Assembly: GCA_946187695.1 (NCBI GenBank)
Contig: CAMHSB010000006.1
Span: 4,675-68,674 of the forward strand
Reading direction: 5' to 3'
Origin: an uncultured Bacteroidales bacterium
Lineage (GTDB): Bacteria; Bacteroidota; Bacteroidia; Bacteroidales; Paludibacteraceae
DNA length: 64,000 nucleotides
A program made the position numbers and the translations under genes. The notes under the pieces are model-generated. The model did no database searches and had not been told where the DNA came from. It was given only the letters and a program-made list of their open reading frames with translations. Position 1 is the stretch's first letter. Each line of letters starts with the position of its first letter. Shown piece by piece: positions 341 through 16,546 of this stretch.

Positions 341-543
341 CAAATGAATAATTTACATCCTTCTGACTTAAATTCTTCTATCTTAGCGTAGATATCTTCA
401 ACATCACAACCTAAATATGAAGCCAAGCAATCTATGCAGTAGTAGTTTTCTATATCTTCCCCAAGCAGTTTTTTATTAATACCGATGGTATTCTTGTCGA
501 GATTCTTCTTCCCGCAAGATATGCATTCTTTAGAGTTCTTCAT
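340..543 (-). CDS. Small Cys-rich zinc-ribbon-like protein (67 aa from internal Met MKNSKE; the ORF track gives 85 aa from 597)
   Basis: CISCGKK...YCIDCLASYLGC...EGC pattern (CxxC...CxxC). The internal start leaves only a 14-nt overlap with the brxL-like stop; the stop codon is coupled to the cysteine desulfurase ATG. Confidence 0.5.
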   Translation of the reverse strand: MKNSKECISCGKKNLDKNTIGINKKLLGEDIENYYCIDCLASYLGCDVEDIYAKIEEFKSEGCKLFI

Positions 544-1972
544 GAATATCTCGAATTGAAAACGCCGGCATATTTTTGCCTCGATATTGTTCATCAATTA
601 TTCCCATCTGGCGCAGGATGATTTGACGCATCTTAACCGCTGGACGCAGACAATATTGTTGGAATTCGCGCACGTTGATATCTTCCTCAGAACGTACGTG
701 GGGGAACAGAAGTTTTAAATATGCTGTGGCTATACGTTTAACCGCCTCTGTATTACGTGTGTCTGCATCTGATGGATACTCTACAATCCTATCTACAATA
801 GCACGATAAGAAGCATCATCACGAAGCAAGTGAAGGATAGTTGTAAAGTACTCCGAATTAAGTGCCCAGCCGGAGATTTTGAGACCTTCATTCATACGAG
901 GAATATCCCATCCCTTGATGAAACCGTGAATACGATCCATTAAAGCACTCGTTCTAAAGATAAGAGGTAGTGAGTCAAACATATTTTGGAATTCATCCAT
1001 CTTATCTTGATCGATATTACCAAGCATTACAAAACCAGCATCAGCAACATCATTTTTGTCTCCTATTTTGACAGTACCTTGCTCCATATAACCTTGTAAT
1101 GTTTGAGTCATTTCGGCAGGATTGTCAAATTCAACCTTTTGAATTTCATCAAAAGCAATATAGTCATGGAAGAAGACAAGACCATCTTCTCTACGTCCTA
1201 AGTCGTAGAACAATTTAGCACGTGTCATCTTTCCTGCTGATAGATATCCATATCGACTGATATTTCCGAATATATAAGATTTACCAGTTCCTTTAGGAGC
1301 CAATTCAATTAAATTGAGACGTTTTTCTACGAAAGGTAGAACTCGTTGAATCATGGATAGTTTCTCGTGCTCGTCTTTATAGCCGGAGGCGTTATAGTCC
1401 ATGGCGCCAAGAATAACATCAATCCATTCATGAATATCAAATTCCTTTCGAATGTTTTTGTAATAGTCCAAGTCTATTTCGTAAGGGCAGAAATTTTGGA
1501 AACTGAGTAGTTTTATTTTTCCTTTCTGTTTCAAAACATCATCAGGATATCGATAGCCGAGTTCTACTATACCCCATGTCTCTTTTGCTTTAATCAATTC
1601 ATCTTGACACATATCCCATACCCTTGACTCAATGATGGTATCTTTATTTGACAACCCAAAATCAGGTAAAGAGAAGGTCACTTCTTGATTCTTAATGTCA
1701 ATATCTACAGAGATACGAGTAAGAATCTTTACATGTTCATTTTCTACTACTATACGGTTCTTTACCGCTGTCCACTCTGCTTTTGAGGGTATATATGTGT
1801 GGACAAAATCGGTAATCTCTTTAATATCGAATTTACCATCTTCATCTTCAAACATTTTTAATAGCCAATCACGTAAAAATGATGGTAAACTTAGTGACTT
1901 AAAAAAGTTACTTTCTTTGAGGTCTTTATAAACTACCATCTCCTCAAAGCAATTTCTCAATTTCTTCTCCAT
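530..1972 (-). CDS. brxL: BrxL-like AAA+ ATPase (BREX Lon-like protein family, short 480-aa form)
   Basis: The N-terminus (VVYKDL...LPSFLRDWLLKMF) resembles the BrxL N-domain. Walker A LAPKGTGKSY and Walker B YIAFDEIQ are present. Lies directly downstream of pglZ. Confidence 0.65.
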   Translation of the reverse strand: MEKKLRNCFEEMVVYKDLKESNFFKSLSLPSFLRDWLLKMFEDEDGKFDIKEITDFVHTYIPSKAEWTAVKNRIVVENEHVKILTRISVDIDIKNQEVTFSLPDFGLSNKDTIIESRVWDMCQDELIKAKETWGIVELGYRYPDDVLKQKGKIKLLSFQNFCPYEIDLDYYKNIRKEFDIHEWIDVILGAMDYNASGYKDEHEKLSMIQRVLPFVEKRLNLIELAPKGTGKSYIFGNISRYGYLSAGKMTRAKLFYDLGRREDGLVFFHDYIAFDEIQKVEFDNPAEMTQTLQGYMEQGTVKIGDKNDVADAGFVMLGNIDQDKMDEFQNMFDSLPLIFRTSALMDRIHGFIKGWDIPRMNEGLKISGWALNSEYFTTILHLLRDDASYRAIVDRIVEYPSDADTRNTEAVKRIATAYLKLLFPHVRSEEDINVREFQQYCLRPAVKMRQIILRQMGIIDEQYRGKNMPAFSIRDIHEEL

Positions 1973-1978
1973 ATATGA

Positions 1979-4261
1979 CTAAAAGAATTTACGTTCGTTA
2001 ATACCTTCCTTCTTGACTTCAAATGTCAAATTTTGGGCGATAATACTATTATTTACATAGACATCCATCGTGTGCATTCCTGCTTTTTTAACATCAGGCA
2101 TTTCAACTGTATAGTAATACTTATTCTCAGTTTTGTGAGCTTCGTAGTACTTGCCTTCTACTAAAACTTTAACATCTTCGAAATCTTCCGATATATAAAT
2201 GCGTACTACCGCATTTTTCTTAAAGCTTGCTGTTACAATCGTGGATTGAGAATCAATCATGCATTTTAGGGATGCAGACTGACGAGTAATCTCAATAATT
2301 GGAACAATAACTTCCTCTAATGTTGCTCCTCCGTGAACCTCGACATTAGCTTTGCGACCACCACGGAATCGATCGTAGTTTGCTAAACACCAGAAATCAT
2401 TTTCTTCTGTTGCCTGTTCCGGTTTTTCTGAAATGTCGGATTTGGGGCAGCAACGACCGGAGTGTTGTCCCTTTTCGCTAACTTCCCACTTGTTTTCGTG
2501 CTCATTTATCACAGCAAGGCGACTAGCACCATGATCCGAGATTAGGTATATTCTTCTATATTGACCCGACAGTAAATCGCTTTCCACGTGTTTGAGTAAC
2601 GTTTGTATCTCGGATAGTTCAGAATATAAATGGATAGGAAGCTTTTCTGTCTCGTAATTGTATGACATCACGCCATTATGCTTTATCTCATCTATAGCCT
2701 TTATATCACGTACCGGAGTGTTTGATAAATTAAATTCGCCAACAAATTCCTTATTCTTACTTGTAATAGATGGTAAATTACATAGACCATACTTGATATT
2801 ACCAACAAGTCCTAATTCATATAGTTTCTCTTGAATATACCCGAGATATTCAACGCCCATAGCGTCAGTAAAATATACAAGAGCATTTTCTTTTGATAAC
2901 TTAGATACAATCGAGGCGCGAGGAACTAAATATTTATTGTATTCTCGTTTTATAGCCTGTTCGCTCACAATCTCCTTCATTTCATCTGAGATATAATTTG
3001 CAATCTTACAATATTTATACATCTCAAAATAATGAGTAAAGATATCCTCTTTGAATCTAAACTTTTTAAGGTATGCCAATAGATCTGGTGAAACATCAGT
3101 TAATAGAGCCTGTACTTTATCTATTGTATAAATATCTCTGTATTTTGCAATAACCGAAAGCAACATGCGTTTCTCGCTCCAAGTGTAATCTGTTAAGTAA
3201 CCTAATGCCTTTTCGTTCTTCCCACTGACAATTTTACAAAATTCACTCGCAGCACCTTCCTCAGCTACATTCTTGAGAATATTTCTTCGTTCTAAATATA
3301 AGTTCCTAAAATGCTTATTAGTCGTATCAAAGTCTAATATAAAATTGTAGAAATTTTGAATAAAATTCTCATATCTGTCTGTTTTGCCGAGAACGTACGA
3401 TAGATATTCGTTATTCTTGACTCCACATACCTTTAACGAGACGAAATGTGCCCACTTTTTATTTGGAGAGTAGGAAGAGTATTGATGGAAACAATTAGCT
3501 AAATTAGGTATTCCGGCATATTCGGACACAAGAAAATCATCCCAGTTAGAGCGCTTAATGAGCGTATTAGCTAAATATTCCCATTGTTCAGATGTTCCCC
3601 ATTGTTCTTCTATACCACTAAGTGCAGAATATATTCCAACTATACTATCAAAACTAGAGTTAAGTTCTCTAATAGGGATGAGGGATAATGGGAAATCTTT
3701 TTTTGTTTTAGAAGTTACAACATTACATTCCATATCAGCAGATTGATCGTAGTATTCCACCATCTTATCAAGACCATCAGAATATACGGTACAGGTGTTT
3801 TTTAGTTTTTTTGATATGAATAATAATGTTGTTATGGGATGATTTGTGTCGGAAGAAACGATTAACACCCTGTTGGCGGCTGATATACGCGGGTCGCTAA
3901 ACTTGAGATAATCTGCACATTGTACTGTTACTAATATCAATTTCCCTTGAGCTTCCAAGGAGATAAAATTCTTTAAAAAGCGTTTAGTCTCTTTGGCACC
4001 CTTTAGTTTAAGAGCCACACTAATCCCGGTCAAGAACGTTGTTCCCGATAATAATGACACGTCATTGAGCAACTTTGGTATGTCGGGAAGGTTATCCTTG
4101 ATGGCATATTTGTGGCTGCCAACAAAACGATTCTTTCCAACATGATAGTGGGTCTTAAACTCAGATAAATCTTTCGCCGAAGGTAAGTCCACTATTATTG
4201 GACTTTGAAATTCGGACGATAGGTATTTATCGACTTTTTTATATGCTTCTGCTATTGTCAT
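1979..4261 (-). CDS. pglZ: PglZ-domain (alkaline-phosphatase fold) protein of BREX
   Basis: 760 aa. YFTDAMGVEYLGY and RIYLISDHGASRL motifs are typical of the PglZ domain. Sits between brxC-like and brxL-like genes. Confidence 0.8.
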   Translation of the reverse strand: MTIAEAYKKVDKYLSSEFQSPIIVDLPSAKDLSEFKTHYHVGKNRFVGSHKYAIKDNLPDIPKLLNDVSLLSGTTFLTGISVALKLKGAKETKRFLKNFISLEAQGKLILVTVQCADYLKFSDPRISAANRVLIVSSDTNHPITTLLFISKKLKNTCTVYSDGLDKMVEYYDQSADMECNVVTSKTKKDFPLSLIPIRELNSSFDSIVGIYSALSGIEEQWGTSEQWEYLANTLIKRSNWDDFLVSEYAGIPNLANCFHQYSSYSPNKKWAHFVSLKVCGVKNNEYLSYVLGKTDRYENFIQNFYNFILDFDTTNKHFRNLYLERRNILKNVAEEGAASEFCKIVSGKNEKALGYLTDYTWSEKRMLLSVIAKYRDIYTIDKVQALLTDVSPDLLAYLKKFRFKEDIFTHYFEMYKYCKIANYISDEMKEIVSEQAIKREYNKYLVPRASIVSKLSKENALVYFTDAMGVEYLGYIQEKLYELGLVGNIKYGLCNLPSITSKNKEFVGEFNLSNTPVRDIKAIDEIKHNGVMSYNYETEKLPIHLYSELSEIQTLLKHVESDLLSGQYRRIYLISDHGASRLAVINEHENKWEVSEKGQHSGRCCPKSDISEKPEQATEENDFWCLANYDRFRGGRKANVEVHGGATLEEVIVPIIEITRQSASLKCMIDSQSTIVTASFKKNAVVRIYISEDFEDVKVLVEGKYYEAHKTENKYYYTVEMPDVKKAGMHTMDVYVNNSIIAQNLTFEVKKEGINERKFF

Positions 4262-4262
4262 A

Positions 4263-7200
4263 TTACTTTGAACGTATTATTTCAACACCTACTCGGGCAT
4301 TGGTTTTGATGAGTTTTTTCAAATATTGTTTAGCCTCATCCGGATTCATAGTATCAATCTTGGCGAAAGCTTTATTGTAGCCGTCTTTCATATACTTATC
4401 TCTGAATAACTCGTCTAACTTATTCGAGAGTGAAGTTGACTGACACCAGTCATATACTTCTGCATACAAATGCTCAGCTAAATAATTCTTAATCAAGTCT
4501 ATGTCATCCAGTAGAACGATTCGATCTCTAATAATATATTTTTTGAACGCTTCATCCCGAGCATTCGCATCTTTTAGTACATTCCAGAATGCAAAAGCTT
4601 TGAAGTAAGAGAGAGCCTTCTTGGTTGTAGAACTATCCGGATTAGATGCGTTTATGCACGCGAAATATTGCTTGTTATCGCTCCATTCTTCTTCTGGCAG
4701 CATTATTTGTAAAGGGACTTTATATTTCTCAGACCATGCAGAAGGTGTATCTGTACCTGTATTTTCTTTCCATAGGTTTCGTAGCAAGATAGAATCAAGC
4801 TGTTGAAGATATTCTTTGATAATGGCAGAAACGCAATTCCTGTAATCCGATTCATCCATCGTGAAACAGTTGGTCGGAATCTTTCCAAATATACTATCTT
4901 GGTCGTTATCAGACAAACCTGATAATAAATCTGCACATGATTTCTTGAAGTATTCTGATTGATTCGCATACAATCTAAGGAATTCGTAGCCTTGATTTTG
5001 AATCTCTTGTAAGAATGCTTCATTTTGGAGCGTCGTGAGTGCGGTAGATAACTTAGATAGGTAATATAAGCGCTCTAATAAACTATCTATTTGACTTGTA
5101 TAATTTTTGATTACTTGATAAGCCAAATGCATATTACTGCAACGAGATGCCCACAAATTCAATGCGTCTTTATAAGATTTACATGGACTATGGAGAACTT
5201 CAGAGGTGGCTTTTGCTATTTTGTACTCACATATCAACTCCTTTATTTTACTCTCTGCTGTATCTTGCTTCCACACCCAATTGGCTGCATCTGCATCAAA
5301 CTTCTCCCTAAGTACATTGATATATTGACCTCCGTCATTTATATCTGCTGCGATAGATAGAAGTTCCGAATAATAAGCCTTTATGAATAATTCCATGCCT
5401 CGTGTGCAATTTTCTTTCGTTAGCACAAGTGACAATTGATCCATAAGGTCATCATCTGATATGATGATTCTTCCTATTTCCATCGCAATGTCGTTATCAG
5501 ATTTACCGGAGTTATCCTTAACATTATTTGCTAAATTGCAATAATGCTCTAATAACGTACACAATTCTTCCCCTTTAGTTACTCCATCTATCACTTCTAA
5601 TGCATACTTAAGAGTCCACAAAGGAAATGCGAATTCTTTCATCTTGTTACGAATGTATGTGCGTGTATGCTCTACAGACGTACAATATTGGTGCGATATG
5701 TCAAACGCCTTAGATGATGCGTTGAAAAATGCTTTCTCTTCGGGAGTGACTGCGACTATGTATTTCTGACGGTAACGGGAATTTGGCGTGTTATCGAGTT
5801 TGATAACCTCGTCAACCATTTCTTCAAATTTCGTTTCCGTTAATTCTTCGCTTGATATATCATCACTATAAGAGAATGAGCCACTTTTAACGTACTCCTT
5901 CATCAAAAAACCTATCATGAATGCGGAGAAGTTACATGGCATAAATCCATAAGGTTCTGCTTTTAAGAATTCATATATCTCTTGGATTGCTATACGACCA
6001 TTTTTCTCTAAATGCTCATCAACAAAGCGATTGAGTGCTATCTTAATTTTCGAAATATTATAAGATGGTATAGATTCCCAATAAGCGGGCTTCTTCCATA
6101 CAGAGTCTAAAACCACATTCAGCCTGTTGGTGGCATTTCCAGAATTGTACACTCCCTTCAATTCTTCTTGTAACGCACTTTCTACTCCTTGTTTTAATGT
6201 CGTGCATATCCATAAGTTATTATTAACCGAGAATTGATCAAGGCATAGATGGTAGCGTTTAACTGTTATTGTGCGTAGCGCATCAATTATAGACGCAAGG
6301 TTAGGATGATATTCTGTATTTGCTAATTCCTTGCAGGACAGTTCGAATTGACCTTTAGTTATAGCAAGTTTCCAGTCCTTTAGAATGTTATTCGCATAGT
6401 TCGAATAATATTGAGCCTGTTGATTGTCCTTGCCGGTAAATATTGCGGCTTTGGCTTTATATCCGACCCATTCGTCGAATTTAAGCTTTCCTAACACGGT
6501 CTTAGATGTATTGACAAATACAACTATGCTATCTGGATTTTTAGAACGAAATTCAGATATTTTTTGTGTTAACATAGCTGCCTCTTGCTCATCCTTTGCA
6601 AATAATAGAATAAAAGGTATTTTCCCATAAGTTGAATTATCATTATTTGCTTTGGAAGTGATCAACTCAAAATTATCCAAACATGCTTCATATGGTTTGA
6701 ATCTCAATTTGATAGCATCCGTCAACTCGATAAATTCACGCAGGGCACCCTCCGAGATAAGCGAGTTGGTAGTTGTAGATTCAAACTTCTTTTTGGAATC
6801 GTTGATTTTTGTGCTATCTAATTCTGAAGTAAGAATACTATAGACAAACTTATCAGAACCCATTGGTTTTTTATATACGATATTATCTCGAACCAATTTT
6901 TCGGCACATGAAATAGCCTCATTTTCTAAATCAGAGCCTTCAAACGCATTAGAAAGATTCCTTTCGGTCGCCAGGAATATATCTACTGCGTCATTAACCT
7001 CAAGAGACATAGCCTGCATGAGAAGAATCGTTTTTAACACTCTCTCTTCTTCGGATGTCAATTTTTTCGTTGTGCTCAGGCGAGGATAGTTGTCTAGAAT
7101 CATGCGAATATTCTGGGCTAAACTATCTTTTCCTAAGTCATAGAAGAAGCCCCATAGCATATCGATTGTCAAAAGAGGATTCTCGTCATAAGGTCCAAAG

Positions 7201-8450
7201 TTATCAATAAACCAACAGAATCCTTTGTTTTCTCCTCCATTTTCATTTTTAATAAAGTCAAACATACTGCGTTGGTTTGACTCAAAGGAAGTAGAAATGT
7301 GCTTTAACAAACAAGCTGTGTATGGATGTATAGGAAGAACTCCTTGTAGAATATCATCATCTATTTGAGCTATGTTTTTAACTATCTTGCGAGATTCTAC
7401 TGTTCGTTCACATAAATCGGCAATTATTTTTCCCCATTCTTTTTGTAGCACCTCGTCCTTATTTTTTTGCATAGCGGCTCCCATAAGTTTGAATGCCATA
7501 TTCTCAGGAAGTTCGATTCTGCGAGTTGGGCGATTAAAACGTCCTAAAATCTTACTCTTTTGCGTAGGATCTGCTAACAACGCCTCGCTCTTATGGGTGA
7601 CAAGGATGAAACTAAACGGCGTAGTCTCGCTCAGTTCAAGTATCGTTTGGAATCCGGTCTGAGTGTCCAAATTGTTCTTAAAGTATTCTGTGAACTCATC
7701 CCATATAAACACAATAGAATTAAGATTGTTTACATTGATAACTTCTTTTATCCATCCACATAAGGCTTTGTCATCAAGCGTAAACGCTTTAATTTGTTTT
7801 TCATGCGCTACACGGAACACCTTACTCATTAACTCTAATAAAGGAACTCCGGTAAAAGTAGAGAGATTGTGTATGATATCATCAACAGACGCTCCTGCAA
7901 AAAGATTTTTGTAACTACCATTTACATAGACAGCAAAGCTATTTTTGTTTTCTTCGTCTGAAAGATACTTAATGACAGAGTCCTTCATAGAAGAAGAAGC
8001 CATGTTTGTAATTCCTGCCTCTTTAAGCGCATCTTCTATACTCTCTTGTATCGCCAAGAATAAATCGTTATCGCCATGAATTGCTGACGAACCATAGCGA
8101 TGAATGGTAATTACTTTCCCTTGATTCTTTGCACTAAGAAACTTATTAAGAAGGTCGTTATCTAAGCTAAAATTATGAAAATATTCTTTGGTCTCCGCTT
8201 CCGACGCATCCAATAATCGTTTAAGGGTGAGTACAGCATGGGACTTTCCTGTTCCATATGCTCCTTCTACCCAAATGTTTAATTTTTTAGTACGTGTGAT
8301 AACTCCTATAGTATCTTTAAGCAAATCAACAAATGTAGAGTGTGGATAGAATTTCTTCCACAAATCTTCGTCATGCTTAATAACATCAGCGTTTACTGCA
8401 GGAAAGTAATCAGGATCTATTTCAAAAAAATGACGATAACTATTAGCCAT
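4263..8450 (-). CDS. brxC: BrxC/PglY-like large P-loop NTPase (1395 aa)
   Basis: N-terminal Walker A WVEGAYGTGKSHAV, Walker B-like IVFIWDEFTEY, very long helical C-terminal part. Position between the PAPS-reductase gene and pglZ matches BREX type 4 order. Confidence 0.7.
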   Translation of the reverse strand: MANSYRHFFEIDPDYFPAVNADVIKHDEDLWKKFYPHSTFVDLLKDTIGVITRTKKLNIWVEGAYGTGKSHAVLTLKRLLDASEAETKEYFHNFSLDNDLLNKFLSAKNQGKVITIHRYGSSAIHGDNDLFLAIQESIEDALKEAGITNMASSSMKDSVIKYLSDEENKNSFAVYVNGSYKNLFAGASVDDIIHNLSTFTGVPLLELMSKVFRVAHEKQIKAFTLDDKALCGWIKEVINVNNLNSIVFIWDEFTEYFKNNLDTQTGFQTILELSETTPFSFILVTHKSEALLADPTQKSKILGRFNRPTRRIELPENMAFKLMGAAMQKNKDEVLQKEWGKIIADLCERTVESRKIVKNIAQIDDDILQGVLPIHPYTACLLKHISTSFESNQRSMFDFIKNENGGENKGFCWFIDNFGPYDENPLLTIDMLWGFFYDLGKDSLAQNIRMILDNYPRLSTTKKLTSEEERVLKTILLMQAMSLEVNDAVDIFLATERNLSNAFEGSDLENEAISCAEKLVRDNIVYKKPMGSDKFVYSILTSELDSTKINDSKKKFESTTTNSLISEGALREFIELTDAIKLRFKPYEACLDNFELITSKANNDNSTYGKIPFILLFAKDEQEAAMLTQKISEFRSKNPDSIVVFVNTSKTVLGKLKFDEWVGYKAKAAIFTGKDNQQAQYYSNYANNILKDWKLAITKGQFELSCKELANTEYHPNLASIIDALRTITVKRYHLCLDQFSVNNNLWICTTLKQGVESALQEELKGVYNSGNATNRLNVVLDSVWKKPAYWESIPSYNISKIKIALNRFVDEHLEKNGRIAIQEIYEFLKAEPYGFMPCNFSAFMIGFLMKEYVKSGSFSYSDDISSEELTETKFEEMVDEVIKLDNTPNSRYRQKYIVAVTPEEKAFFNASSKAFDISHQYCTSVEHTRTYIRNKMKEFAFPLWTLKYALEVIDGVTKGEELCTLLEHYCNLANNVKDNSGKSDNDIAMEIGRIIISDDDLMDQLSLVLTKENCTRGMELFIKAYYSELLSIAADINDGGQYINVLREKFDADAANWVWKQDTAESKIKELICEYKIAKATSEVLHSPCKSYKDALNLWASRCSNMHLAYQVIKNYTSQIDSLLERLYYLSKLSTALTTLQNEAFLQEIQNQGYEFLRLYANQSEYFKKSCADLLSGLSDNDQDSIFGKIPTNCFTMDESDYRNCVSAIIKEYLQQLDSILLRNLWKENTGTDTPSAWSEKYKVPLQIMLPEEEWSDNKQYFACINASNPDSSTTKKALSYFKAFAFWNVLKDANARDEAFKKYIIRDRIVLLDDIDLIKNYLAEHLYAEVYDWCQSTSLSNKLDELFRDKYMKDGYNKAFAKIDTMNPDEAKQYLKKLIKTNARVGVEIIRSK

Positions 8451-8464
8451 GATTATAACAAGAT

Positions 8465-10801
8465 TTAAAAGAGGTTAAGTACATCTGTTGAGAATTTATC
8501 ATCTCGTAAGGAAATGTTATCAAGATCGAGAGTAAATGATGACGAAATGAAGTCTGGATATTTAGCGCTGAGGCCATTAATAACGCGCTTCATTATTTCT
8601 GAATCTACGCCAAACATTTGTACCGGGCTAATTCCTTCACTATCAACAGATGTATCCATTAAACGACTTAAAGTGAATTGATAATAGCCACCACAAGCTT
8701 CTGCAAAGCGGTACAAGCTATATAATATAACGAGATCGTCAGGATTCCCCCACGGCATTCTCTGAATCTTATAGTTATTGCGCTCTGCATCTACTATTAA
8801 GCCGAACCCAAGTTCGCCTAAAGGAAGAGCCGATATGCGTTTAATAGAATTCGGAACCGATTTTACAGCACTTGCGCTAACTCCTTCTGTGTTGCCGAGA
8901 ATTTCAGATATATACTGCTGTGATATAGGTTCTCCAAAGTCAAAGTTGCGCACAAACCAACCTACTTGAGCAGAATAACAAAGATTGACATACATAGCAG
9001 CCCATATCTGCTTGTCATCTAGTCCACGCTCACGTAGTAGAGAGGCTAAGATTGTCTCTGTATTGTTACTCAAAAGACCTGCATCTCGCAAGAACTTTTT
9101 GAACGCAGGAAATTCATTATTTCCTAACGTGTACTCCGTGTAGAATCTGCTCTCTAATTTGATAAATTGACTAAACCAATCTAATTTAGGAGCGTGTGTT
9201 GCATAACTGTCAAGTGATGATTTCATATTTCCATTTCCTTTTGATAACCATAATGATTTATAAACGAGACAACCTGTGTCTATGTCAAAACATTGTCCAC
9301 AGCGTATGCAAGAGTCGCTAATATGAAGATGTCCCGCCTCGTCAAATTTCAGATTGCCATGATTGCAATTAGCTTCGCATACTTTACATCCAACGCAATA
9401 ATGACTTTTGCGGAAGACTCGCCTAATCATTTTGACGAATTCTATTCCTAATTTTGATTTATCGTTTTTTACAATAACTTTTAAATATCCATTTTCCATT
9501 GGTAAAACTTCCAAATCAAACTCTGTACCTCTAAACAGAATTTTGTATTTGTCGTCATAATCTGTGACAAGTAGTTTCCCAATTGGCTTTATCCATTGTT
9601 TCCAATTGTTATCGTGATTGTAGAAGGTAATGATCAACTTTCCGTCGTTGGTAGTGGCTTCGTCATAATCTTTTTTCGCTATTGTTAAGTCTCGTCCATT
9701 TTTACGAGCTTTCCATCCTGTATTTTCAAGATAGCTCCTCAGTTTAGCTTCATTACCTTTATCTACCGCATTAAATTCACGAATAATATCATAGTACGGA
9801 TCCGCTTCTGATTTATAACATTGTTGATTCATGTAATCGCTCTTGCGTGCCGACATAGGACACACTAAACAACCGGCACGGCTATTCCCTCTTTTGTATG
9901 CCTTGTTAATAGGAAGACGATTAGAGTATAGATATAAATAAACTTCAGCAGAGTTCCATTCTAGTATAGGGTTGCAACTATACTGACCTCTGTGTTTTGT
10001 GCCGTAAGACACGAAATCATAACCGCTACGACGGAGACTTTCATCGCCTCTAACTCCCACAAATGCCATTTCTCGGAAATTTTCCTTTCCTACAATTTCC
10101 CTTATAGTCAACAACTGTGGAGTTGTCTTATGCACACTACAACACCAGCGAATTGCGGAGGCTGGAGGACCGAATAGTTTCCATGAGTCTGATGGTTTCA
10201 AATGAGATTTCGCCACATAAAATTTAATATTGTAGTCTTCACATCTTTTCTTTGCCATCTCTACTGCTTCATATGTATCGGAGAACTCCATACCTGTATC
10301 TCCAAAGATCACTACAAATTCGTTATGCGGGAGAGCTCTCTGTACTAAATCTAAAGCCACCTCACTATCTTTACCTCCGCTAAAAGATACGTGGAATATA
10401 TCAACTTTATCTTTGTAGGCAAGGAATGTGTTGTATATAAATTTGATGGTATCTTGTACTAATCCATTGAGGACTTCTTTATTTTTATATACCATCATAT
10501 CAATATCCACGAAACGGAGAGGCGCATTATTTTCTTCGGGAGTATCAATAATATTTACTTCTGGAGCTGTATAAAGCGAACCGCCTTTAAGAGAGGCCAC
10601 TAATTTGCCACGATAGTAATATTCATTAGCTTCTGCCCACATATACGGGGCAGAGTCATCTTTAGCATATGACCAATGCTGATTAAAACCAAGAGTGTCC
10701 ATCTCTTGATAATATACTGGACGTGGCTCTTTGCTAAATGCCAACGGAGTAGTATTCAGCAATAACCCTCCTGATTCTTTGTCGTAGGTATATGAGTACA
10801 T
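8465..10801 (-). CDS. brxP: BrxP-like PAPS-reductase/DndC-like PP-loop ATP pyrophosphatase with ferredoxin-type Fe-S Cys motifs
   Basis: PP-loop HVSFSGGKDSEVALD (nt ~10364-10381). RWCCSVHKT and RAGCLVCPM Cys motifs as in the DndC/IbrA family. CVGCKVCEANC...CIRCGQCFDIDTGC (nt ~9257-9394) resembles a 2x[4Fe-4S] ferredoxin signature. Confidence 0.75.
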   Translation of the reverse strand: MYSYTYDKESGGLLLNTTPLAFSKEPRPVYYQEMDTLGFNQHWSYAKDDSAPYMWAEANEYYYRGKLVASLKGGSLYTAPEVNIIDTPEENNAPLRFVDIDMMVYKNKEVLNGLVQDTIKFIYNTFLAYKDKVDIFHVSFSGGKDSEVALDLVQRALPHNEFVVIFGDTGMEFSDTYEAVEMAKKRCEDYNIKFYVAKSHLKPSDSWKLFGPPASAIRWCCSVHKTTPQLLTIREIVGKENFREMAFVGVRGDESLRRSGYDFVSYGTKHRGQYSCNPILEWNSAEVYLYLYSNRLPINKAYKRGNSRAGCLVCPMSARKSDYMNQQCYKSEADPYYDIIREFNAVDKGNEAKLRSYLENTGWKARKNGRDLTIAKKDYDEATTNDGKLIITFYNHDNNWKQWIKPIGKLLVTDYDDKYKILFRGTEFDLEVLPMENGYLKVIVKNDKSKLGIEFVKMIRRVFRKSHYCVGCKVCEANCNHGNLKFDEAGHLHISDSCIRCGQCFDIDTGCLVYKSLWLSKGNGNMKSSLDSYATHAPKLDWFSQFIKLESRFYTEYTLGNNEFPAFKKFLRDAGLLSNNTETILASLLRERGLDDKQIWAAMYVNLCYSAQVGWFVRNFDFGEPISQQYISEILGNTEGVSASAVKSVPNSIKRISALPLGELGFGLIVDAERNNYKIQRMPWGNPDDLVILYSLYRFAEACGGYYQFTLSRLMDTSVDSEGISPVQMFGVDSEIMKRVINGLSAKYPDFISSSFTLDLDNISLRDDKFSTDVLNLF

Positions 10802-10803
10802 AA

Positions 10804-12639
10804 TTATTTTTTATTCATCTTATTTCTTAATTCCTGCGCTTTAACTAATATTTTCTCTATGTTTTTAAAAGTGCGGAATGCTATATATTTTTTATCGACT
10901 AAAAATTCCAAAGCTTCAGTTTTATTTAGATCGATATCGGACTCTGCAAGAATTTGTGTAATAACACTACTATAGTCATCATAGTGGGATGTTCTTTTTA
11001 TTATTGCTCCGACTACTTTATCTTGATTATATCTTTCATGTGCTAAAGTGAACTTTGCACTACAACTAACGAGATAGGATTCAAGCAGATAAATATTCCA
11101 AGGGTATTGACTGGGAGGGAATGATGTTAGTACCACATCTGAAAAGCTTACATATGAACTTTGTGTAAACTTTTCTATAGTTTCATCTATTGCATTAACA
11201 TCAAACTCTATGGTGTTTTTGTGTACAAATGTATCATAATTAATGCGAAGATAATAGTTGTACGCTATTTCATAACGAATAGAATCAGAACCACATTCTA
11301 AACAGAACGCTTTCAGCTCTGCTAGAGACGTTGTGTCGTGAGTCTTACAAAATGAATCTATTGCTGAATTCGAATCTACAGGATGCTCTATACTGCTAAT
11401 GATATTTCTAATGAAAGAGAATTTATCTTGTAATAAAACATACAAAGAATTTCTAATACCCAACTCTCGAAGAGATATGTTATTGTCCCATACATTGGGA
11501 GTAGTGGCTTTGATAATATCTATTAAATCTGATTTTGTTGCATAACCATACGATAGAATAGTAGAACTTAATTTATTTTCTACCCTCTGCAAGTCCGACT
11601 TGTTTATATCGAAATTGTCTATGTGAAAACATAATTCTCTGCCCCCAGAGATTATTTTATTCGGCTTTTGTTCTATGCTCCGCATGATCACTTCGCGTGG
11701 TAAGTGATGAAGTTCATTACATAATTCTGTAAAAGAAATAATTGTGCCATACTCCTTAATGAAAGTTTCTACTGTCTCAGCAATATTTACGGAACACTCT
11801 GCTGAGTTCGTTATCATATTGTCTTTATAGAACCATCCACTATCGCCATACTTTTTCAAGTATTCACGTAACATTTCTGCATCAAACATCTTTTGATTAG
11901 AGAACATTTGGTTGAAATGTTCGTATAGTACAGAGTAATAGATAAAGGTATTGCCAGACTCGAAACATTCGGCAATATAGCTCAGCAATTCTATTTTACT
12001 ATCTTCGTCTAAAATTTGAGAAGGTAGATACAGCATGTCTTTATATATCACTCCATAGGCAGACAGTTCGTCATCACTAATTTCTCCCAAAGGTTCTCCA
12101 ATAATATCAAGATACAAATGTGATAAACGCTTTCTTTCATTATGTGAAGAAAAACGGAAACCGTGTCTAAATTTTGTAGTAAGTACTTCCTGAAGATGCG
12201 GATTAATCTTGAACTCCGTTTTTATTCCATCATTTTCCATATCTTGTTTTGTGGGGAATAAGACAGGAGTGCCTTCTCGGTCTAATGATGGCGCATAGGG
12301 ATACATTACTTCCGCTTCTGCAAGAATTGTTTCATATTCCTCGGGACTATCTAAACTCATATTCGCAACATCTGCTATAACCTTACTTGGACTATGTAAT
12401 CCATGAAGTCCGTCAGTTAACGTATATTTAACAGAAGCAAGTTGCATTGAAATGCCATTTGTGTTTCGATATGTCGGATCTATTGTTAAACCTTTTGATA
12501 TTGCAGCTTGACGCAATCGATTAGACACTTCGATTGTTGCATCATTTTTTGAGATCTTTCCATTACGAATGCGCCAATAAGCATCCACAAGAAGGGATGC
12601 TTCGTACTGATTCCAATTTGCGTTTATGTTTTGTGTCAT
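10804..12639 (-). CDS. Hypothetical 611-aa protein, first gene of the BREX-like operon (start taken at MTQNINANW, downstream of the promoter box)
   Basis: Long ORF with a 2-nt gap to brxP. The N-terminal ~100 aa (WNQYEASLLVDAYWRIRNGKISKNDATIEVSNRLRQAAISKGLTIDPTYRNTNGISMQ) looks like a module I have seen at N-termini of restriction/defence-associated proteins. I recognise no catalytic motif. Confidence 0.5.
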   Translation of the reverse strand: MTQNINANWNQYEASLLVDAYWRIRNGKISKNDATIEVSNRLRQAAISKGLTIDPTYRNTNGISMQLASVKYTLTDGLHGLHSPSKVIADVANMSLDSPEEYETILAEAEVMYPYAPSLDREGTPVLFPTKQDMENDGIKTEFKINPHLQEVLTTKFRHGFRFSSHNERKRLSHLYLDIIGEPLGEISDDELSAYGVIYKDMLYLPSQILDEDSKIELLSYIAECFESGNTFIYYSVLYEHFNQMFSNQKMFDAEMLREYLKKYGDSGWFYKDNMITNSAECSVNIAETVETFIKEYGTIISFTELCNELHHLPREVIMRSIEQKPNKIISGGRELCFHIDNFDINKSDLQRVENKLSSTILSYGYATKSDLIDIIKATTPNVWDNNISLRELGIRNSLYVLLQDKFSFIRNIISSIEHPVDSNSAIDSFCKTHDTTSLAELKAFCLECGSDSIRYEIAYNYYLRINYDTFVHKNTIEFDVNAIDETIEKFTQSSYVSFSDVVLTSFPPSQYPWNIYLLESYLVSCSAKFTLAHERYNQDKVVGAIIKRTSHYDDYSSVITQILAESDIDLNKTEALEFLVDKKYIAFRTFKNIEKILVKAQELRNKMNKK

Positions 12640-12663
12640 TTTGCCAAGTGTCGTGCGTACATA

Positions 12664-12684
12664 GCACGCATGCATCTGCGTGCA
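12664..12684 (-). promoter_or_regulatory. Palindrome (GCACGCA-N6-TGCGTGC) in the 5' UTR of the BREX-like operon; candidate operator or RNA hairpin
   Basis: Perfect 7-bp arms between the -7 box (12700-12707) and the start codon (12639). A second small hairpin (CGTGC-N7-GCACG) follows. The element is GC-rich relative to the island. Confidence 0.35.
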
Positions 12685-12699
12685 CAAAAAAACTGGCTG

Positions 12700-12707
12700 C
12701 AAAGGTA
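12700..12707 (-). promoter_or_regulatory. Bacteroidota -7 promoter box (TACCTTTG) for the BREX-like operon
   Basis: Minus strand reads TCGTACCTTTGCAGCC, matching the TAnnTTTG consensus, ~60 nt upstream of the ATG at 12639. Confidence 0.55.
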
Positions 12708-12812
12708 CGAAAAATTTTTGATATGTGCAAGACATTTTGCCATATTATGTTTATTTTAGGCTAAAAGCAATTGTTTTTTTACTAAAAACTTGTATATCTG
12801 ATTAAAATTTGC

Positions 12813-12820
12813 TAATTTTG
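12813..12820 (+). promoter_or_regulatory. Bacteroidota -7 promoter box (TAATTTTG) for the divergent GIY-YIG/DGQHR genes
   Basis: GCTAATTTTGCG lies 29 nt upstream of the ATG at 12849. Confidence 0.5.
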
Positions 12821-12848
12821 CGAATAATTTTACAATTATATATACAAT

Positions 12849-13384
12849 ATGACACCAGAAAGGTTTCTAAATGCATTTGAGGAAAACAAAATGTTTGAGA
12901 AGTCATATTACATGACTCCTTCACGATGGAGTCATGCTATTGGTTCCATACCTGAAGTTCAAGATGAGGCGAAATGGATGCCGCCCGTAAAATATATGAA
13001 TAGTACTAATGATGATATTTCTGACGACATCCGTAATTTACCAAATGATGTTGGCGGAATCTATGTTTTCTTCATCAAGGTCCATCTCTTCCATTTTTGG
13101 AACGATACATAGCATATATAGGAAGAGCTCAATTGACTGATTCACAAACTATACGTAAAAGAGCTAAAGAGTATTATCCAGAAAGTCAGAAAGTTGATGG
13201 CCGAATTAAAATTGTTAAATTATTTGAACATTGGAAAGAGTATTTGTACTTTCAATATTTTCCATGTACGGACAACTCGGTTATCCAAAGATGTGAGGCA
13301 AATCTGATACATGCGATTTTCCCTCCATTTAATGACGATATCGCAGAAAAAATCATATTTCACACCCCAATAAATGCATTTTAA
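12849..13384 (+). pseudogene. GIY-YIG-like nuclease gene split by a -1 frameshift near 13079 (ORFs 12849-13112 and 13097-13384)
   Basis: Frame 1 ends ...NDVGGIYVFFIK. Shifting -1 at ~13079 continues GPSLPFLERYIAYIGRAQ...IRKRAKEYY...CEANLIHAIFPPFN, which restores GIY...YIG...R...E...N order. No slippery heptamer at the junction. Confidence 0.5.
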
Positions 13385-13386
13385 TT

Positions 13387-14658
13387 ATGGCAACTGCTAT
13401 TAACATACCAGCCATACGTGGTCATGTAGGTGAGATTGTTTATTACACATCTGTTTTTACTTTTCAACAAATTGTTGAGAGAGTCAAAAAAATAGATGAT
13501 GAGTTGCACACGTCTAAATCTTTGCGCGACCAATTGCAACGAAACCTAACGGAAAATTATAAGAGCATCAAAGACTACATTCTGAGTCACGATGATAGGT
13601 TCTTCAATGCGTTAGTTTTAGCTGTTTATGATGGGGAGCCTACGTGGAATCCCATTGAGATATTTTTTAAAGAAAATCCGTATCATTCGATGGGTTTTCT
13701 TCAACTGAATGGAGAAGAAAAGATATTTCCCGTAGATGGGCAGCATCGTGTTGAAGGAATAAAAGCGGCTCTGAAAATTAATCCAGAACTAAAAGATGAG
13801 ACCATTGCTGTTATATTCATTGGTCACCAGAAGTCTGAGCAAGGCATGGAGAAAACAAGACGCATTTTTACCACCTTGAACCGCTATGCTAAACCTGTCA
13901 AATTAGGTGATATCATTGCATTGGATGAAGATGATATAGTTGCCATTACGACACGTGAACTTTTGGAGTCATATCCTTTGTTTATGGGGAAAAAGATTAG
14001 CAATGCAAAAAATAGTAAAGCTATACCAGATTCAGATACCAATGCGTTTACTACTTTAATGTCGTTATACGAAAGTCATTTGACGTTATACAAATATTTC
14101 AAACAGCACCATGACAGAAAGAGTAAACCATATTCATCTACAGAGATAAAAGAGTCTCTAAAATTACGTCCAAATCAGAGTTCACTAAATGCCTTTAAAT
14201 CTTTCGTAATAGATTTTTGGAACATATTCTGCGCGAATTATGATGGCATGCGTGAATTTAAGGATAGTCAAGCAGATAATGCTGCCAGTCCGTATCGAAA
14301 CAAACAAGGAGGATTGATATATTTCCGTCCAATTGGAATAGAGTCACTGATTCACGCACTGCTACTGACGGCTCAACGCACACCAGAAAAACCATTGGCA
14401 AATATAGTGACTGAATATGCTACTTTAAAATACAACTTGGCTGAGACACCATGGAAGGGCGTGTTTTGGAGACAAAATAATCAGACAATGATTATGGGAA
14501 ACAATCCCCTTGCTGTTTTGTTGCTGATGTATATGTATAATCCAGATCTCCTCACAGAAAAAGAAATGGAGCGTTTGAAGAAAAGATATGCGGATGCTCT
14601 ACAACTTGAGAACATAGAAGATGTGGATGCCAAACTAGAAGAGTTAAGAATGGCATAG
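13387..14658 (+). CDS. DGQHR-domain protein (DndB-like, ParB/Srx superfamily)
   Basis: 423 aa with the literal FPVDGQHRVEGIKAAL motif, ALVLAVYDG upstream and IFTTLNRYAKPV downstream, as in the DndB/DGQHR family. Confidence 0.8.
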   Translation: MATAINIPAIRGHVGEIVYYTSVFTFQQIVERVKKIDDELHTSKSLRDQLQRNLTENYKSIKDYILSHDDRFFNALVLAVYDGEPTWNPIEIFFKENPYHSMGFLQLNGEEKIFPVDGQHRVEGIKAALKINPELKDETIAVIFIGHQKSEQGMEKTRRIFTTLNRYAKPVKLGDIIALDEDDIVAITTRELLESYPLFMGKKISNAKNSKAIPDSDTNAFTTLMSLYESHLTLYKYFKQHHDRKSKPYSSTEIKESLKLRPNQSSLNAFKSFVIDFWNIFCANYDGMREFKDSQADNAASPYRNKQGGLIYFRPIGIESLIHALLLTAQRTPEKPLANIVTEYATLKYNLAETPWKGVFWRQNNQTMIMGNNPLAVLLLMYMYNPDLLTEKEMERLKKRYADALQLENIEDVDAKLEELRMA

Positions 14659-14673
14659 AGATACAAACAGAAA

Positions 14674-14690
14674 AGTCGGAAACTCCGACT
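14674..14690 (+). terminator. Hairpin after the DGQHR gene (AGTCGGA-AAC-TCCGACT), possible terminator
   Basis: 7-bp stem 16 nt after the stop codon. The downstream T-tract is weak. Confidence 0.35.
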
Positions 14691-14745
14691 GTCTTATACT
14701 GAAATAGGTTTACTCATAAAACTGATAAAAAGTGTCAAATTTTAA

Positions 14746-14910
14746 GATTTTAGTTTTATAAAGCGAACACTAAATCGTTATTCTCAATCGTTCAAACAAC
14801 AAGTTTTGGATGATTATTTTCAGTCTAATGCTGACCAACGCGAGTGTGCCAGGAAATGGAAAATTCCGCAATCAACATTATTTACATGGCTTTGTGCTTG
14901 CAAGATCGTA
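14746..14910 (+). pseudogene. Remnant of a transposase/IS helix-turn-helix N-terminus
   Basis: In-frame translation KRTLNRYSQSFKQQVLDDYFQSNADQRECARKWKIPQSTLFTWL resembles IS orfA HTH regions, but no catalytic part follows. Confidence 0.35.
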
Positions 14911-14919
14911 AAAAAAGTG

Positions 14920-14927
14920 TATCTTTG
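14920..14927 (+). promoter_or_regulatory. Orphan -7-like box (TATCTTTG) with no ORF downstream
   Basis: GTGTATCTTTGCATTG; followed only by the direct-repeat region at 14944-15039. Confidence 0.3.
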
Positions 14928-14943
14928 CATTGTCTTTCAAATG

Positions 14944-15039
14944 GTAAACCTTTTTCGCACTCCGGTCAACCTTTTTAGGTATCGAGTCAATAGTTTACGA
15001 TTTTTAAGATTCTATCTCAGTTATCGAGTCAACCTTTTT
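14944..15039 (+). repeat. Direct repeats GT(A/C)AACCTTTTT x3 and TATCGAGTCAA x2; possible recombinase arm sites or an element end
   Basis: Copies at 14944-14955, 14966-14977 and 15028-15039; TATCGAGTCAA at 14980-14990 and 15022-15032. Confidence 0.5.
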
Positions 15040-15540
15040 CAGTTTTAGTCACCTTGACTGTCCACCGGACACTCTGCGGTGCGCCTGTTTCGCTTCTCGG
15101 TCTTGTCCCGCTCATCGCTTGGTGAGAGAGGGATGCTATTACAAGGATTATTGAAAGTAACTCTTTCAATTTCTCCTCGTCCGGAAGCGCCTTGCGGAGT
15201 TCTTCTGGCATATCTGCTGCCATTTTTCTTGATCCGCCATTTCGGCAGCCGCTGGCTGCCAAATTAACAGATTGCTCCATGTTTCATAAAGTGTTGGCTG
15301 CAAACTGCAAAAATCTATATCAATAAGCTTTTGTATAACTACGTTTTACAAAAGTGCGTGCAAAGATACAAAAAAATTCTGACATATGCAAATTTATGTT
15401 ATAAGTTGCATAATTTTGTGTTTAAAAGCAGGTGTTTGAGATCAAAAGTTATACTTATAGGCTTCAGCTCTCATAGCTTCGAACTCAGCCAGTGCCTTTG
15501 CCGCCTTGCGCTCGTGAGCCATTTCATTGCGCAGGCAACT

Positions 15541-15840
15541 GAGAAGGGTGAAACCATTTTGACGAGGTTACCTGAGCCCGTTAGTACTACATACGCCCCT
15601 TTTAAGGGGGTATGTGTACGTACTAAGGGCGTCGAGCGGTATCCTGTCAAGGGCTCCGGATGGCATCCGGAATAACAGACGACGTAAAACCGGAAAAGGA
15701 CCGGACTATGACGTCCGTAATGCGAATGAGATGCGAATGAGACTTAGGTCAAAGTCTCAGAAAAGAGGCATGAAAAGGGACTTGCTTGGGTTCTCCTTAG
15801 GTCGTTCTCGGGACGTGGTCCCGTGATGGTCGCGTTATTG
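15541..15840. other. ORF-free, GC-rich, hairpin-dense segment of unknown nature (candidate structured RNA or element remnant)
   Basis: Long hairpin CGTTAGTACTACATACGCCCC-TTTTAA-GGGGGTATGTGTACGTACTAAGG. Further hairpins CTCCGGATGGCATCCGGA, GACGT..CCGG-AAAAGGA-CCGG..ACGTC, GAGACT-N8-AGTCTC and GGGAC-GTG-GTCCC. Tandem TGCGAATGAGA x2. Confidence 0.3.
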
Positions 15841-15934
15841 ACCCGACATAACCCCGTAAGTATAGCGATTTAATAAACAGCAAACAACAATCTTTTTAGC
15901 AAACTCAAGTACGCTTAAGCGAGCTTAGACAAAG

Positions 15935-15987
15935 TCTTTTTGCAAGCAAATCGAAGACAAGAAATCTTTTTTTTGCAAGCAAATCGA
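15935..15987 (+). repeat. Direct repeat TCTTTTT(TTT)GCAAGCAAATCGA x2
   Basis: Copies at 15935-15954 and 15965-15987, just upstream of the tRNA/rnpB promoter. Confidence 0.6.
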
Positions 15988-16002
15988 TTATTTTTTGCTA
16001 AA

Positions 16003-16037
16003 AATCTTGCAAATTTGAAAAATTTGTAGTAATTTTG
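16003..16037 (+). promoter_or_regulatory. Strong Bacteroidota-type promoter (TCTTGC...TAATTTTG) for the tRNA-Gly/rnpB transcript
   Basis: AAATCTTGCAAATTTGAAAAATTTGTAGTAATTTTGCAG with the -7 box at 16030-16037. Near-identical architecture at 38978-39013. Confidence 0.55.
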
Positions 16038-16167
16038 CAGCCGATTTTGGTTGGAGTCGTTATTCTCCCTCGGGAGGACTTCGTGAGTCCGACCGAAAAG
16101 CGTAGCATAGAACGTAGGCGTAATTGAGCGACGGGGTCGCGAGTCACGCGAGTTCTAATGCAAGCGC

Positions 16168-16238
16168 GCGGTGTTAGCACATCGGTAGTGCATCGGCTTC
16201 CCAAGCCGAGGAGGCGGGTTCGATTCCCGTACACCGCT
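16168..16238 (+). tRNA. tRNA-Gly (anticodon CCC), 71 nt, CCA not encoded
   Basis: Hand-folded cloverleaf. Acceptor GCGGTGT/ACACCGC, D stem GCAC/GTGC, anticodon stem TCGGC/GCCGA with loop TTCCCAA, T stem GCGGG/CCCGT with loop TTCGATT. Confidence 0.85.
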
Positions 16239-16240
16239 CT

Positions 16241-16537
16241 CAGAGTAGGCCGGTCTATCGCGCATGCGAGTGCGAGGAAAGTCCGGGCAGCATAGAGCAC
16301 CGTAACGGTTAACGGCCGTCAGGCAGTGATGTTTGGTCCCTGCAACAGAGACGAGACGCTATGCTCTCCCCGAAAGAAAGGGGAAAAGGGCAAAGCGGGT
16401 GAAACGGGCACACTACGGGCTGCAATTCCAAGTAAACCGATGTCTGAGCGTTGCTCGCGCGAGTCGGAGGGTAGGAAGCGTTAGATTAATGATAGACGCC
16501 CGCAAGGGTACAGAACCCGGCTTACAGGCTTGCTCTT
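16241..16537 (+). ncRNA. rnpB: RNase P RNA, bacterial type A, compact (~295 nt)
   Basis: Universal P4 strands GAGGAAAGTCCGGGC (16275-16289) and ACAGAACCCGGCTTA (16510-16524). P1 GAGTAGGCC/GGCTTGCTC and P2 GTCTATC/GATAGAC pair. GCAACAGAGA, GGGTGAAACGGG and GTAAAC elements are present. Confidence 0.85.
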
Positions 16538-16546
16538 TAATTGACC

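Follow-up and report, generated by a model that had tools for sequence, protein, structure and literature searches.

What does a nuclease-like gene joined to a DndB-like gene do beside a type 4 bacteriophage exclusion (BREX) operon? Immunity that relies on phosphorothioate, type 4 BREX above all, has only recently been linked to a DNA modification. The question is raised by a locus of an uncultured Bacteroidales bacterium (Paludibacteraceae) in a stretch of 64,000 nucleotides (nt), here called the window (contig CAMHSB010000006.1 of assembly GCA_946187695.1, positions 4,675 to 68,674), where a GIY-YIG-like gene and a gene whose product carries a DGQHR motif lie side by side on one strand, divergent from a complete BREX operon. 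We find that the two genes are a conserved, unnamed cassette, made up of a stand-alone GIY-YIG nuclease of about 175 amino acids (aa) and a DGQHR protein of about 420 aa, which here is divergent and has its own upstream region. It is genetically tied to Ssp-type phosphorothioation, either as SspBCD or as the fused form BrxP plus BrxC, and it is independent of which restriction module is present. The cassette belongs to the "ParB-like module plus nuclease" theme, and the copy in the window is half decayed. Coordinates in the window are collected in Table 1; other loci and proteins carry our own L and P numbers.

The cassette was followed in a species scan in which one genome per species was kept, giving 80 loci. 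These are mostly from Bacteroidota, with others from Bacillota, Spirochaetota, Cyanobacteria, Acidobacteriota, Planctomycetota, Campylobacterota, a Paceibacterota metagenome-assembled genome and further groups, so that at least eight phyla are represented. In 78 of the 80 loci the DGQHR gene is directly preceded by a gene for a GIY-YIG homologue of about 175 aa. The gaps between the two genes are mostly between -17 and +16 nt, with stop and start codons that overlap or nearly abut in most cases, and these small or negative distances suggest that the two genes are translationally coupled. Pairwise distances among the GIY-YIG proteins correlate with those among their DGQHR partners (r = 0.85) better than the distances of the two pair members correlate with those of SspC (0.64 and 0.59), SspD (0.52 and 0.48) or PbeA (0.74 and 0.73); the corresponding value for SspC and SspB is 0.95. 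Since adjacency is nearly complete and the correlation within the pair exceeds those with the Ssp proteins and PbeA, the cassette appears to move as one piece that is swapped between host systems. We infer that the two proteins interact physically.

The genes around these 80 loci were clustered and representatives of the clusters annotated. SspB, SspC or SspD, or else BrxP/BrxC, are found within 10 kb of the pair in 71 loci, and the other nine are either truncated by contig ends or contain BrxL, SspA, Pbe-like or C9 genes; no phosphorothioation-free context was found among the fetched loci, and neither DndD nor DndE was identified among the neighbors in the 80 related loci or in the window. 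Most copies flank SspBCD together with Pbe-like or SspFGH genes. Five arrangements recur. In the first the order is SspB-SspC-SspD-pair-PbeA-small-PbeC-like-C7 (PbeA is present in 40 loci), in the second SspA-PbeA-...-C7-pair is convergent with SspD-SspC-SspB, and in the third C9-pair is convergent with SspBCD (C9 is present in 17 loci). The fourth, SspBCD-pair-SspFGH, was seen in two loci, and the fifth, BrxP-small-BrxC-PglZ-BrxL-pair, in nine loci plus L016, which is cut inside BrxL. Tannerella forsythia ATCC 43037 and Alloprevotella tannerae (L026, L027) are hosts of the SspBCD-pair-Pbe type. The pair is co-transcribed variously with modification genes or with restriction-side genes (SspA-PbeA-PbeC-C7-pair; C9-pair). 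Overlaps between the pair and the start or stop codons of sspD or Pbe-side genes of the same operon are frequent, and it stands mostly at the 3′ end of operons.

The sequence-only reading had linked the pair to BREX and had proposed, as an alternative, that DGQHR plus GIY-YIG is a separate two-gene nuclease module without a name. The pair is indeed syntenic with BrxP systems elsewhere (L001-L013, L015-L018, L056, L089, L098, L119, L139 and L173). A BREX-specific link, however, does not hold, as most copies flank SspBCD and the pair follows brxL in only three of 61 metagenomic BREX-4 loci with enough flanking sequence, plus L098 with a shorter flank. At this frequency the pair is an accessory and not a core or regular component of BREX-4. 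The unnamed two-gene module is the better description, except that in no fetched locus is it "separate" from Ssp-type or linked phosphorothioation genes. The pair is not described in the literature that was searched, namely the report on type 4 BREX in Bacteroides (PMC12914056), the 2026 BREX survey (PMC12839542), the 2024 Dnd reappraisal (PMC10853773) and the papers on SspFGH, SspE and DndI, and PADLOC has no model for the GIY-YIG protein and none that describes the pair.

L001, L002 and L089 have the same divergent arrangement as the window, and so, probably, do L090 and L091, whose sequences break off within the upstream gene; among 38 BREX-4 loci in which 2.2 kb or more of sequence precedes brxP, none had a divergent copy. 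SspE-like DGQQR proteins of 760 aa adjoin the pair in only two of the 80 loci (L036:7172-9454 and L040:7368-9653), and a shorter DGQQR open reading frame (ORF) of 344 aa occurs in a third locus with the pair, L061. Two other neighbors of the pair were recorded. The C9 protein (about 818 aa, for example L024:7012-9468 and L014:14210-16732) has a weak HATPase_c_3 (MORC-like) match and no PADLOC model; it adjoins the pair in 17 loci, directly upstream in most, and could be a further, uncharacterised partner of Ssp-type systems. A conserved ORF of 192 or 193 aa lies directly 3′ of the DGQHR gene in the Bacteroides-type BREX-4 loci (L003:11279-11860; also L004-L008). It matches no Pfam or PADLOC family and is absent from the window.

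The 423-aa protein at the downstream end of the pair carries the literal motif FPVDGQHRVEGI at residues 114-125, with DGQHR itself at residues 117-121, as had been noted from the sequence, and profile searches bear out the assignment. It scores 109.4 bits with Pfam PF14072 (DndB; cut-off 29.1) and 104.5 bits with TIGR03187 (DGQHR; cut-off 58.85), and it is also matched by the PADLOC DndB model. With the DndB equivalog TIGR03233, however, it reaches only 85.9 bits against a cut-off of 328 (E = 2.8e-24, aligned residues 5-235 only). Because it passes the first two models and falls below the cut-off of the third, the protein is classed as a member of the DndB family, in the ParB/Srx superfamily, and not as DndB proper. 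The DGQHR domain model spans residues 9-324, and the remaining 100 aa or so form a helical tail. Among 80 sequences that are 38-56% identical to the window protein, the motifs conserved at 97% or more are QR (51-52), FPVDGQHRVEGI, RRxFxTLNRYxKPV, DxIALDEDD and RN..GG..FRP. Makarova and colleagues reportedly assigned a HEPN domain to DndB; an Rx4-6H motif of the HEPN type was sought in the C-terminal half of the DGQHR proteins and rejected, as no histidine is conserved there. A profile search found no relatives of the family among PDB sequences.

The assignment of the upstream gene to the GIY-YIG nucleases rests on family-level evidence. The two fragments of this gene in the window, the repaired 178-aa protein and its intact relative P0121 have no Pfam GIY-YIG match, the repaired protein not even at E ≤ 10, but the residues and predicted fold of the family favor the assignment. 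PF20815 is weakly matched by 100 of 119 family members and PF01541 by 84 of 119 (E ≤ 1; best values 1.8e-4 and 3e-5, respectively). In an alignment of 83 homologues with a mean column identity of 39%, W27, G69, G70, Y72, Y90, G92, R93, R105, Y109, R119, N143, E150 and N162 are invariant, and these include the canonical GIY...YIG...R...E...N pattern of tyrosine, tyrosine, arginine, glutamate and asparagine. Some public databases already call homologues GIY-YIG proteins. An AlphaFold 2 (AF2) model with a mean predicted local distance difference test (pLDDT) score of 87 has an N-terminal helical extension and a beta-beta-alpha-alpha-beta-alpha core. When it was compared with predicted viral structures, a phage GIY-YIG protein ranked first (E = 1.5e-4, probability 1.0, template-modelling (TM) score 0.67 on the target), and intron and homing endonucleases came next; among PDB sequences a profile search found no relatives. 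The family is therefore predicted to have the GIY-YIG alpha/beta fold, and the invariance of its active site argues that DNA cutting would be part of what the cassette does.

The window copy, which had been taken for a single GIY-YIG-like gene at 12849-13384, consists of two ORFs in different frames, and the frameshift that separates them had been missed. One T is absent relative to L089-L092, so that TTCATTCAAGG in these four contigs (94-96% identical in DNA; blastn) is TTCATCAAGG in the window. The four contigs encode the intact 178-aa protein P0121, which is 98% identical to the repaired window protein and whose first part is 98% identical to the 87-aa fragment; a single base added anywhere in 13060-13099 restores the 178-aa ORF. 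All residues of the GIY-YIG catalytic type are still encoded, but across two frames, with YIGR, R105, E150 and N162 (P0121 numbering) in the 3′ fragment. As the deletion parts the GIY strand from YIG and from the arginine, glutamate and asparagine, neither fragment is expected to be an active enzyme, and the window nuclease gene reads as a pseudogene. The frame that precedes the DGQHR gene stops 2 nt before its ATG, and not 3 nt as first reported.

The split allele is also present on contig L093, and three contigs have been recorded with its 87-aa product (P0266); intact 178-aa versions are commoner (P0265, 11 contigs). The presence of the split allele on further contigs makes an isolated sequencing error less likely, and programmed frameshifting was rejected, as no slippery run is present and the frame is continuous in all relatives. 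In L090 (2468-3741) and L091 (2480-3753), which are 96% identical to the window, it is the opposite half of the cassette that has decayed. There the DGQHR gene is split into 224 and 199 aa by a 2-nt insertion in a G-run (GGGG to GGGGGG), and the GIY-YIG gene is intact. The BREX-4 ORFs stay open while the cassette halves break, and it appears from these alleles that the cassette is being lost piecemeal in this lineage while BREX-4 is kept open.

Table 1. Features of the type 4 BREX operon and of the divergent cassette in the window
Feature	Position	Strand	Remarks
Cysteine desulfurase (DndA/SspA/IscS-like), 5′ part	1-340	-	about 113 codons; runs off the left window edge
Zinc-finger-like CxxC...CxxC ORF, 67 aa	340-543	-	after brxL
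BrxL, short form	530-1972	-	N-terminal and ATPase domains; TIGR02688 405 bits; PADLOC BrxL 685 bits
BREX-4 PglZ	1979-4261	-	NF033445 BREX_PglZ_4 400 bits (cut-off 140); PADLOC PglZ 318 bits
BrxC/PglY ATPase (SspC homologue)	4263-8450	-	PADLOC BrxC 851 bits; SspC matches weaker
BrxP	8465-10801	-	PADLOC BrxP 822 bits; Pfam PAPS_reduct 102 bits
brx operon first gene	10804-12639	-	611 aa from M33 (probable start); 643 aa from the ATG at 12735 (10804-12735)
Divergent intergenic/promoter region of the cassette	12640-12848	.	209 bp if M33 is the start, otherwise 113 bp
GIY-YIG-like 5′ fragment, 87-aa ORF	12849-13112	+	N-terminal helical region and GGIYVFF strand
1-nt deletion (one T missing relative to L089-L092)	13075/13076	+	between the GIY and YIG motifs
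GIY-YIG-like 3′ fragment, 95-aa ORF, TTG start	13097-13384	+	YIAYIGRAQ; homology in frame from about 13077
DGQHR gene, 423 aa, intact	13387-14658	+	DndB family, ParB/Srx superfamily

The minus-strand operon is a complete, canonical type 4 BREX system, with brxP, brxC, pglZ and brxL together, and is thereby a full member of the type that has been shown to make phosphorothioate DNA in Bacteroides salyersiae. BrxP combines a PAPS-reductase/SspD-like sulfur-inserting enzyme, a 4Fe-4S-like region and an SspB-like C-terminal part. The cysteine desulfurase at the window edge is 36% identical to the SspA of L034 (tblastn, E = 2.4e-15), and together with the small CxxC ORF after brxL it matches the extra type 4 BREX components, a cysteine desulfurase as sixth component and an adjoining small zinc-finger protein, that have been described (PMC12839542). 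DndA-, DndB- and DndC-type functions (the desulfurase, the DGQHR protein and BrxP) do surround the BREX effectors, as the sequence-only reading held. It had also given the pair and the brxP operon a shared spacer of about 210 bp. The length stands if the first gene of the operon starts at M33, and the N-terminus of a homologue and the DNA conservation with L001 make M33 its probable start; the divergent gene, however, is this ORF preceding brxP, and not brxP. It has no Pfam or NCBIfam match and a weak PADLOC match (PDC-M49B, E = 0.005), and homologues were found in L089 and L118. L118 is the only one of 80 metagenomic BREX-4 loci with such a homologue, in which the N-terminal domain of about 100 aa is duplicated. 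Compared with the BREX-4 of B. salyersiae, the window variant has this first gene and lacks the small gene named mcrA by the authors of that work. The window BREX-4 proteins are only 22-40% identical to those of Bacteroides-type loci, and the pair is 41-57% identical.

The operon and cassette lie in an island of 36% G+C (about 1-15,050) in a genome of 53% G+C. The island ends on the right before tRNA-Gly(CCC) at 16168-16238. A class A RNase P RNA gene (16242-16540; Rfam, 156 bits) begins 3 nt after this tRNA, and both RNA genes are at the right border of the island; G+C climbs from about 15,050 onward. The roughly 1.5 kb between the DGQHR gene and the tRNA (14659-16167) contain no convincing ORF and no Rfam match, and no integrase was found in the part of the island within the window. 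A second patch of low G+C (34.5%) at 36001-38000 coincides with the minimum of the cumulative GC skew and may be another island or a skew switch.

An experimental comparison is offered by the seven-gene brx operon of B. salyersiae DSM 18765, in which type 4 BREX makes phosphorothioate DNA (PMC12914056). Cloned brxP, mcrA and brxC gave phosphorothioate in B. thetaiotaomicron and brxC alone gave none. Deletions of mcrA (02792), brxZ (02794), brxL (02795) or Bs02796 kept phosphorothioate at levels that the figure legend gives as not significantly different from wild type, and the brxC deletion mutant, which lacks phosphorothioate, is viable (PMC12914056). The gene order in L003-L013 (BrxP, a gene of about 146 aa, BrxC, PglZ, BrxL, GIY-YIG, DGQHR) is the same as that of the B. 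salyersiae operon. By this order Bs02796 (HMPREF1532_02796) would be the GIY-YIG gene and the seventh gene (02797) the DGQHR gene. As brxP, mcrA and brxC suffice and the Bs02796 deletion causes no significant change, the pair is apparently dispensable for making the phosphorothioate mark.

What, then, does the pair do? The closest functional precedents are SspE and DndI, in which a phosphorothioate-sensing ParB-like nucleoside triphosphatase (NTPase) is joined to a nickase, and which coexist with SspFGH or DndFGH (PMC8092258, PMC11662687). For this reason we favor, tentatively and at somewhat less than an even chance, the view that the pair may be a split counterpart of SspE/DndI, with an NTP-binding ParB-fold sensor and a nuclease. 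The fuller proposal, that it would be a two-subunit phosphorothioate reader-nuclease that Ssp-type systems, among them some of type 4 BREX, use as an interchangeable effector cassette in Bacteroidota and at least seven other phyla, is possible but more doubtful. On the view of a split counterpart, the DGQHR subunit would bind DNA and ATP or GTP, read the phosphorothioate status and then allow its GIY-YIG partner to nick or cleave invading DNA, and the cassette would add a further nuclease arm to PglZ/BrxL, Pbe-like or SspFGH modules. A DndB-like protein has been reported to bind ATP and GTP (bioRxiv 10.1101/2025.10.10.680097).

The likeness to SspE and DndI (a DUF262 ParB-like NTPase with a DUF1524 HNH nickase) extends to the attachment to a phosphorothioation module and to the ability to coexist with a second restriction module. 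The pair differs in being two polypeptides, with a GIY-YIG and not an HNH nuclease and with a ParB-like part that is of the DndB type (DGQHR) and not DUF262 (DGQQR). DndB itself (Salmonella enterica Cerro 87 and Streptomyces lividans dndBCDE) shares PF14072, the DGQHR, QR and FxxxN-type motifs, the ParB/Srx fold class and the location beside phosphorothioation genes. Unlike dndB, which is the first gene of its operon and has no preceding GIY-YIG gene, the DGQHR gene follows a GIY-YIG gene and is at the end of the operon or divergent, and its partners are SspBCD or BrxPC, without DndD or DndE neighbors seen. The type IV enzymes GmrSD and BrxU likewise join a ParB-like NTPase to a nuclease, and those of the BrxU type are also BREX accessories; they target modified phage DNA, are not tied to phosphorothioation genes, have another nuclease fold and are either single-chain or GmrS plus GmrD. 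DpdB, the ParB-like ATPase of the 7-deazaguanine Dpd system, is another DndB-like ParB-fold protein on a DNA-modification machine, but it powers base exchange by DpdA and has no nuclease partner; the PADLOC DpdB models matched none of the window proteins.

Several observations weigh against a split reader-nuclease. The DGQHR protein is not in DUF262 but in the DndB family, whose one characterised member acts as a transcriptional repressor and not as an effector; neither DUF262 nor DUF1524 matched the window pair, whose motif is DGQHR and not DGQQR. Complete restriction modules accompany the pair, so that no further effector is needed. No GIY-YIG::DGQHR fusion was found by a Rosetta-stone search of the best 150 of 514 family clusters (50% identity), in which all proteins are stand-alone and of 54-216 aa. 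Foldseek searches of the PDB with the models of either protein returned only noise (TM 0.05-0.2), which argues neither for nor against, and the AF2 model of the DGQHR protein, for which only close homologues were given as input, is poor (pLDDT 63), so we drew no structural inference from it. The identification of Bs02796 and its neighbor with the pair comes from gene order alone. If B. salyersiae does carry the pair, the viability of the brxC mutant without phosphorothioate excludes a simple attack on unmodified DNA; an SspE-like mode, in which phosphorothioate stimulates the nuclease, fits better.

The main rival to a split reader-nuclease, which we consider unlikely, is that the DGQHR protein is a governor of the DndB type that binds the brx or ssp promoter or its own, or limits ATP, and so restrains phosphorothioation as DndB does for dndBCDE; its GIY-YIG partner might then be auxiliary, for example nicking or processing DNA at over-modified or stalled sites. 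We know of no DndB-type regulator for Ssp or BREX-4 systems. The best family matches of the DGQHR protein are indeed to DndB (Pfam, TIGR03233 and PADLOC), but it scores far below the equivalog cut-off and differs in its last third. The attachment of the pair to the modification module, whatever the restriction module may be (Pbe-like, SspFGH, C9 or BREX), would suit a governor, whereas its position at the 3′ end of the operon in most loci is unlike that of dndB at the front. In the window it is the DGQHR gene that is intact and the nuclease gene that is lost; a repressor, on the other hand, leaves the obligatory partner with its invariant nuclease active site unexplained.

The upstream region can be read both ways. 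About 130 bp of 12640-12848 are some 80% identical to L001:9252-9461, although the gene on the far side differs and the GIY-YIG proteins of the two loci are only 67% identical, and such conservation is compatible with an operator. Still, no conserved palindrome or repeat that could be an operator is shared by the two intergenic regions, only promoter-like elements of the TTTG type, and the inverted repeat 12790-12803/12834-12847 of the window is not conserved in L001. The motif TAATTTTG at 12813-12820 resembles the Bacteroides -7 promoter element. Finally, when the gene after brxL was deleted, phosphorothioate was not significantly changed (PMC12914056), a result that at least weakens a regulatory role for the nuclease partner.

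It is improbable, in our estimation, that the pair is a general-purpose backup or suicide effector, or an unrelated cassette for type IV-like restriction, that merely travels in defence islands and acts independently of phosphorothioate. Stand-alone GIY-YIG (URI) nucleases at the borders of Dnd neighborhoods have been proposed to be backup effectors (PMC10853773), and like the pair they are linked to phosphorothioation loci, but those of that survey are DndDE-centred and loosely linked, with no obligate DGQHR partner and no Ssp or BREX-4 linkage described. Pairings of ParB-like domains with nucleases are also widespread among restriction systems, GmrSD being an example (PMC4619093, PMC3632139). 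The semi-independent evolution of the cassette relative to the Ssp genes and its presence in only about 5% of BREX-4 loci would both suit a traveller of this kind. Against it, none of the fetched loci is free of phosphorothioation, the pair often overlaps codons of sspD or Pbe-side genes within one operon, and chance co-location in islands would not yield near-complete linkage over eight phyla. Least probable of all, and by a wide measure to be doubted, is a modification helper in which a GIY-YIG nickase and a ParB-like NTPase supply the nick or strand opening for sulfur insertion by SspD or BrxP. The pair does stand immediately after sspD in many loci, and current modelling makes DUF4007 of SspB a DNA-binding (BrxA-like) module and not a nuclease, which leaves a nicking step without an owner (PMC12839542). 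Yet brxP, mcrA and brxC are enough for phosphorothioate in a naive Bacteroides host and the gene after brxL can be dispensed with (PMC12914056), the pair is missing from about 95% of the BREX-4 loci sampled, and BREX-4 is intact in the window while the nuclease is broken.

For the strain studied here, the decay of one half of the cassette leaves the DGQHR half as the only one able to act. BrxP and BrxC should go on phosphorothioating DNA, the nuclease arm would be off, and the surviving DGQHR protein would perhaps keep only a DNA- or NTP-binding role, possibly a regulatory one. B. salyersiae DSM 18765 offers genetic tools and phosphorothioate assays, and by gene order a deletion of its nuclease gene already exists. 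The cassette is a strong candidate for the missing reader-effector, or else the missing regulator, of these systems. If the split reader-nuclease is the true explanation, it would represent a new nuclease class in phosphorothioate-dependent immunity and would give DGQHR proteins of the DndB family the role of effector rather than repressor.

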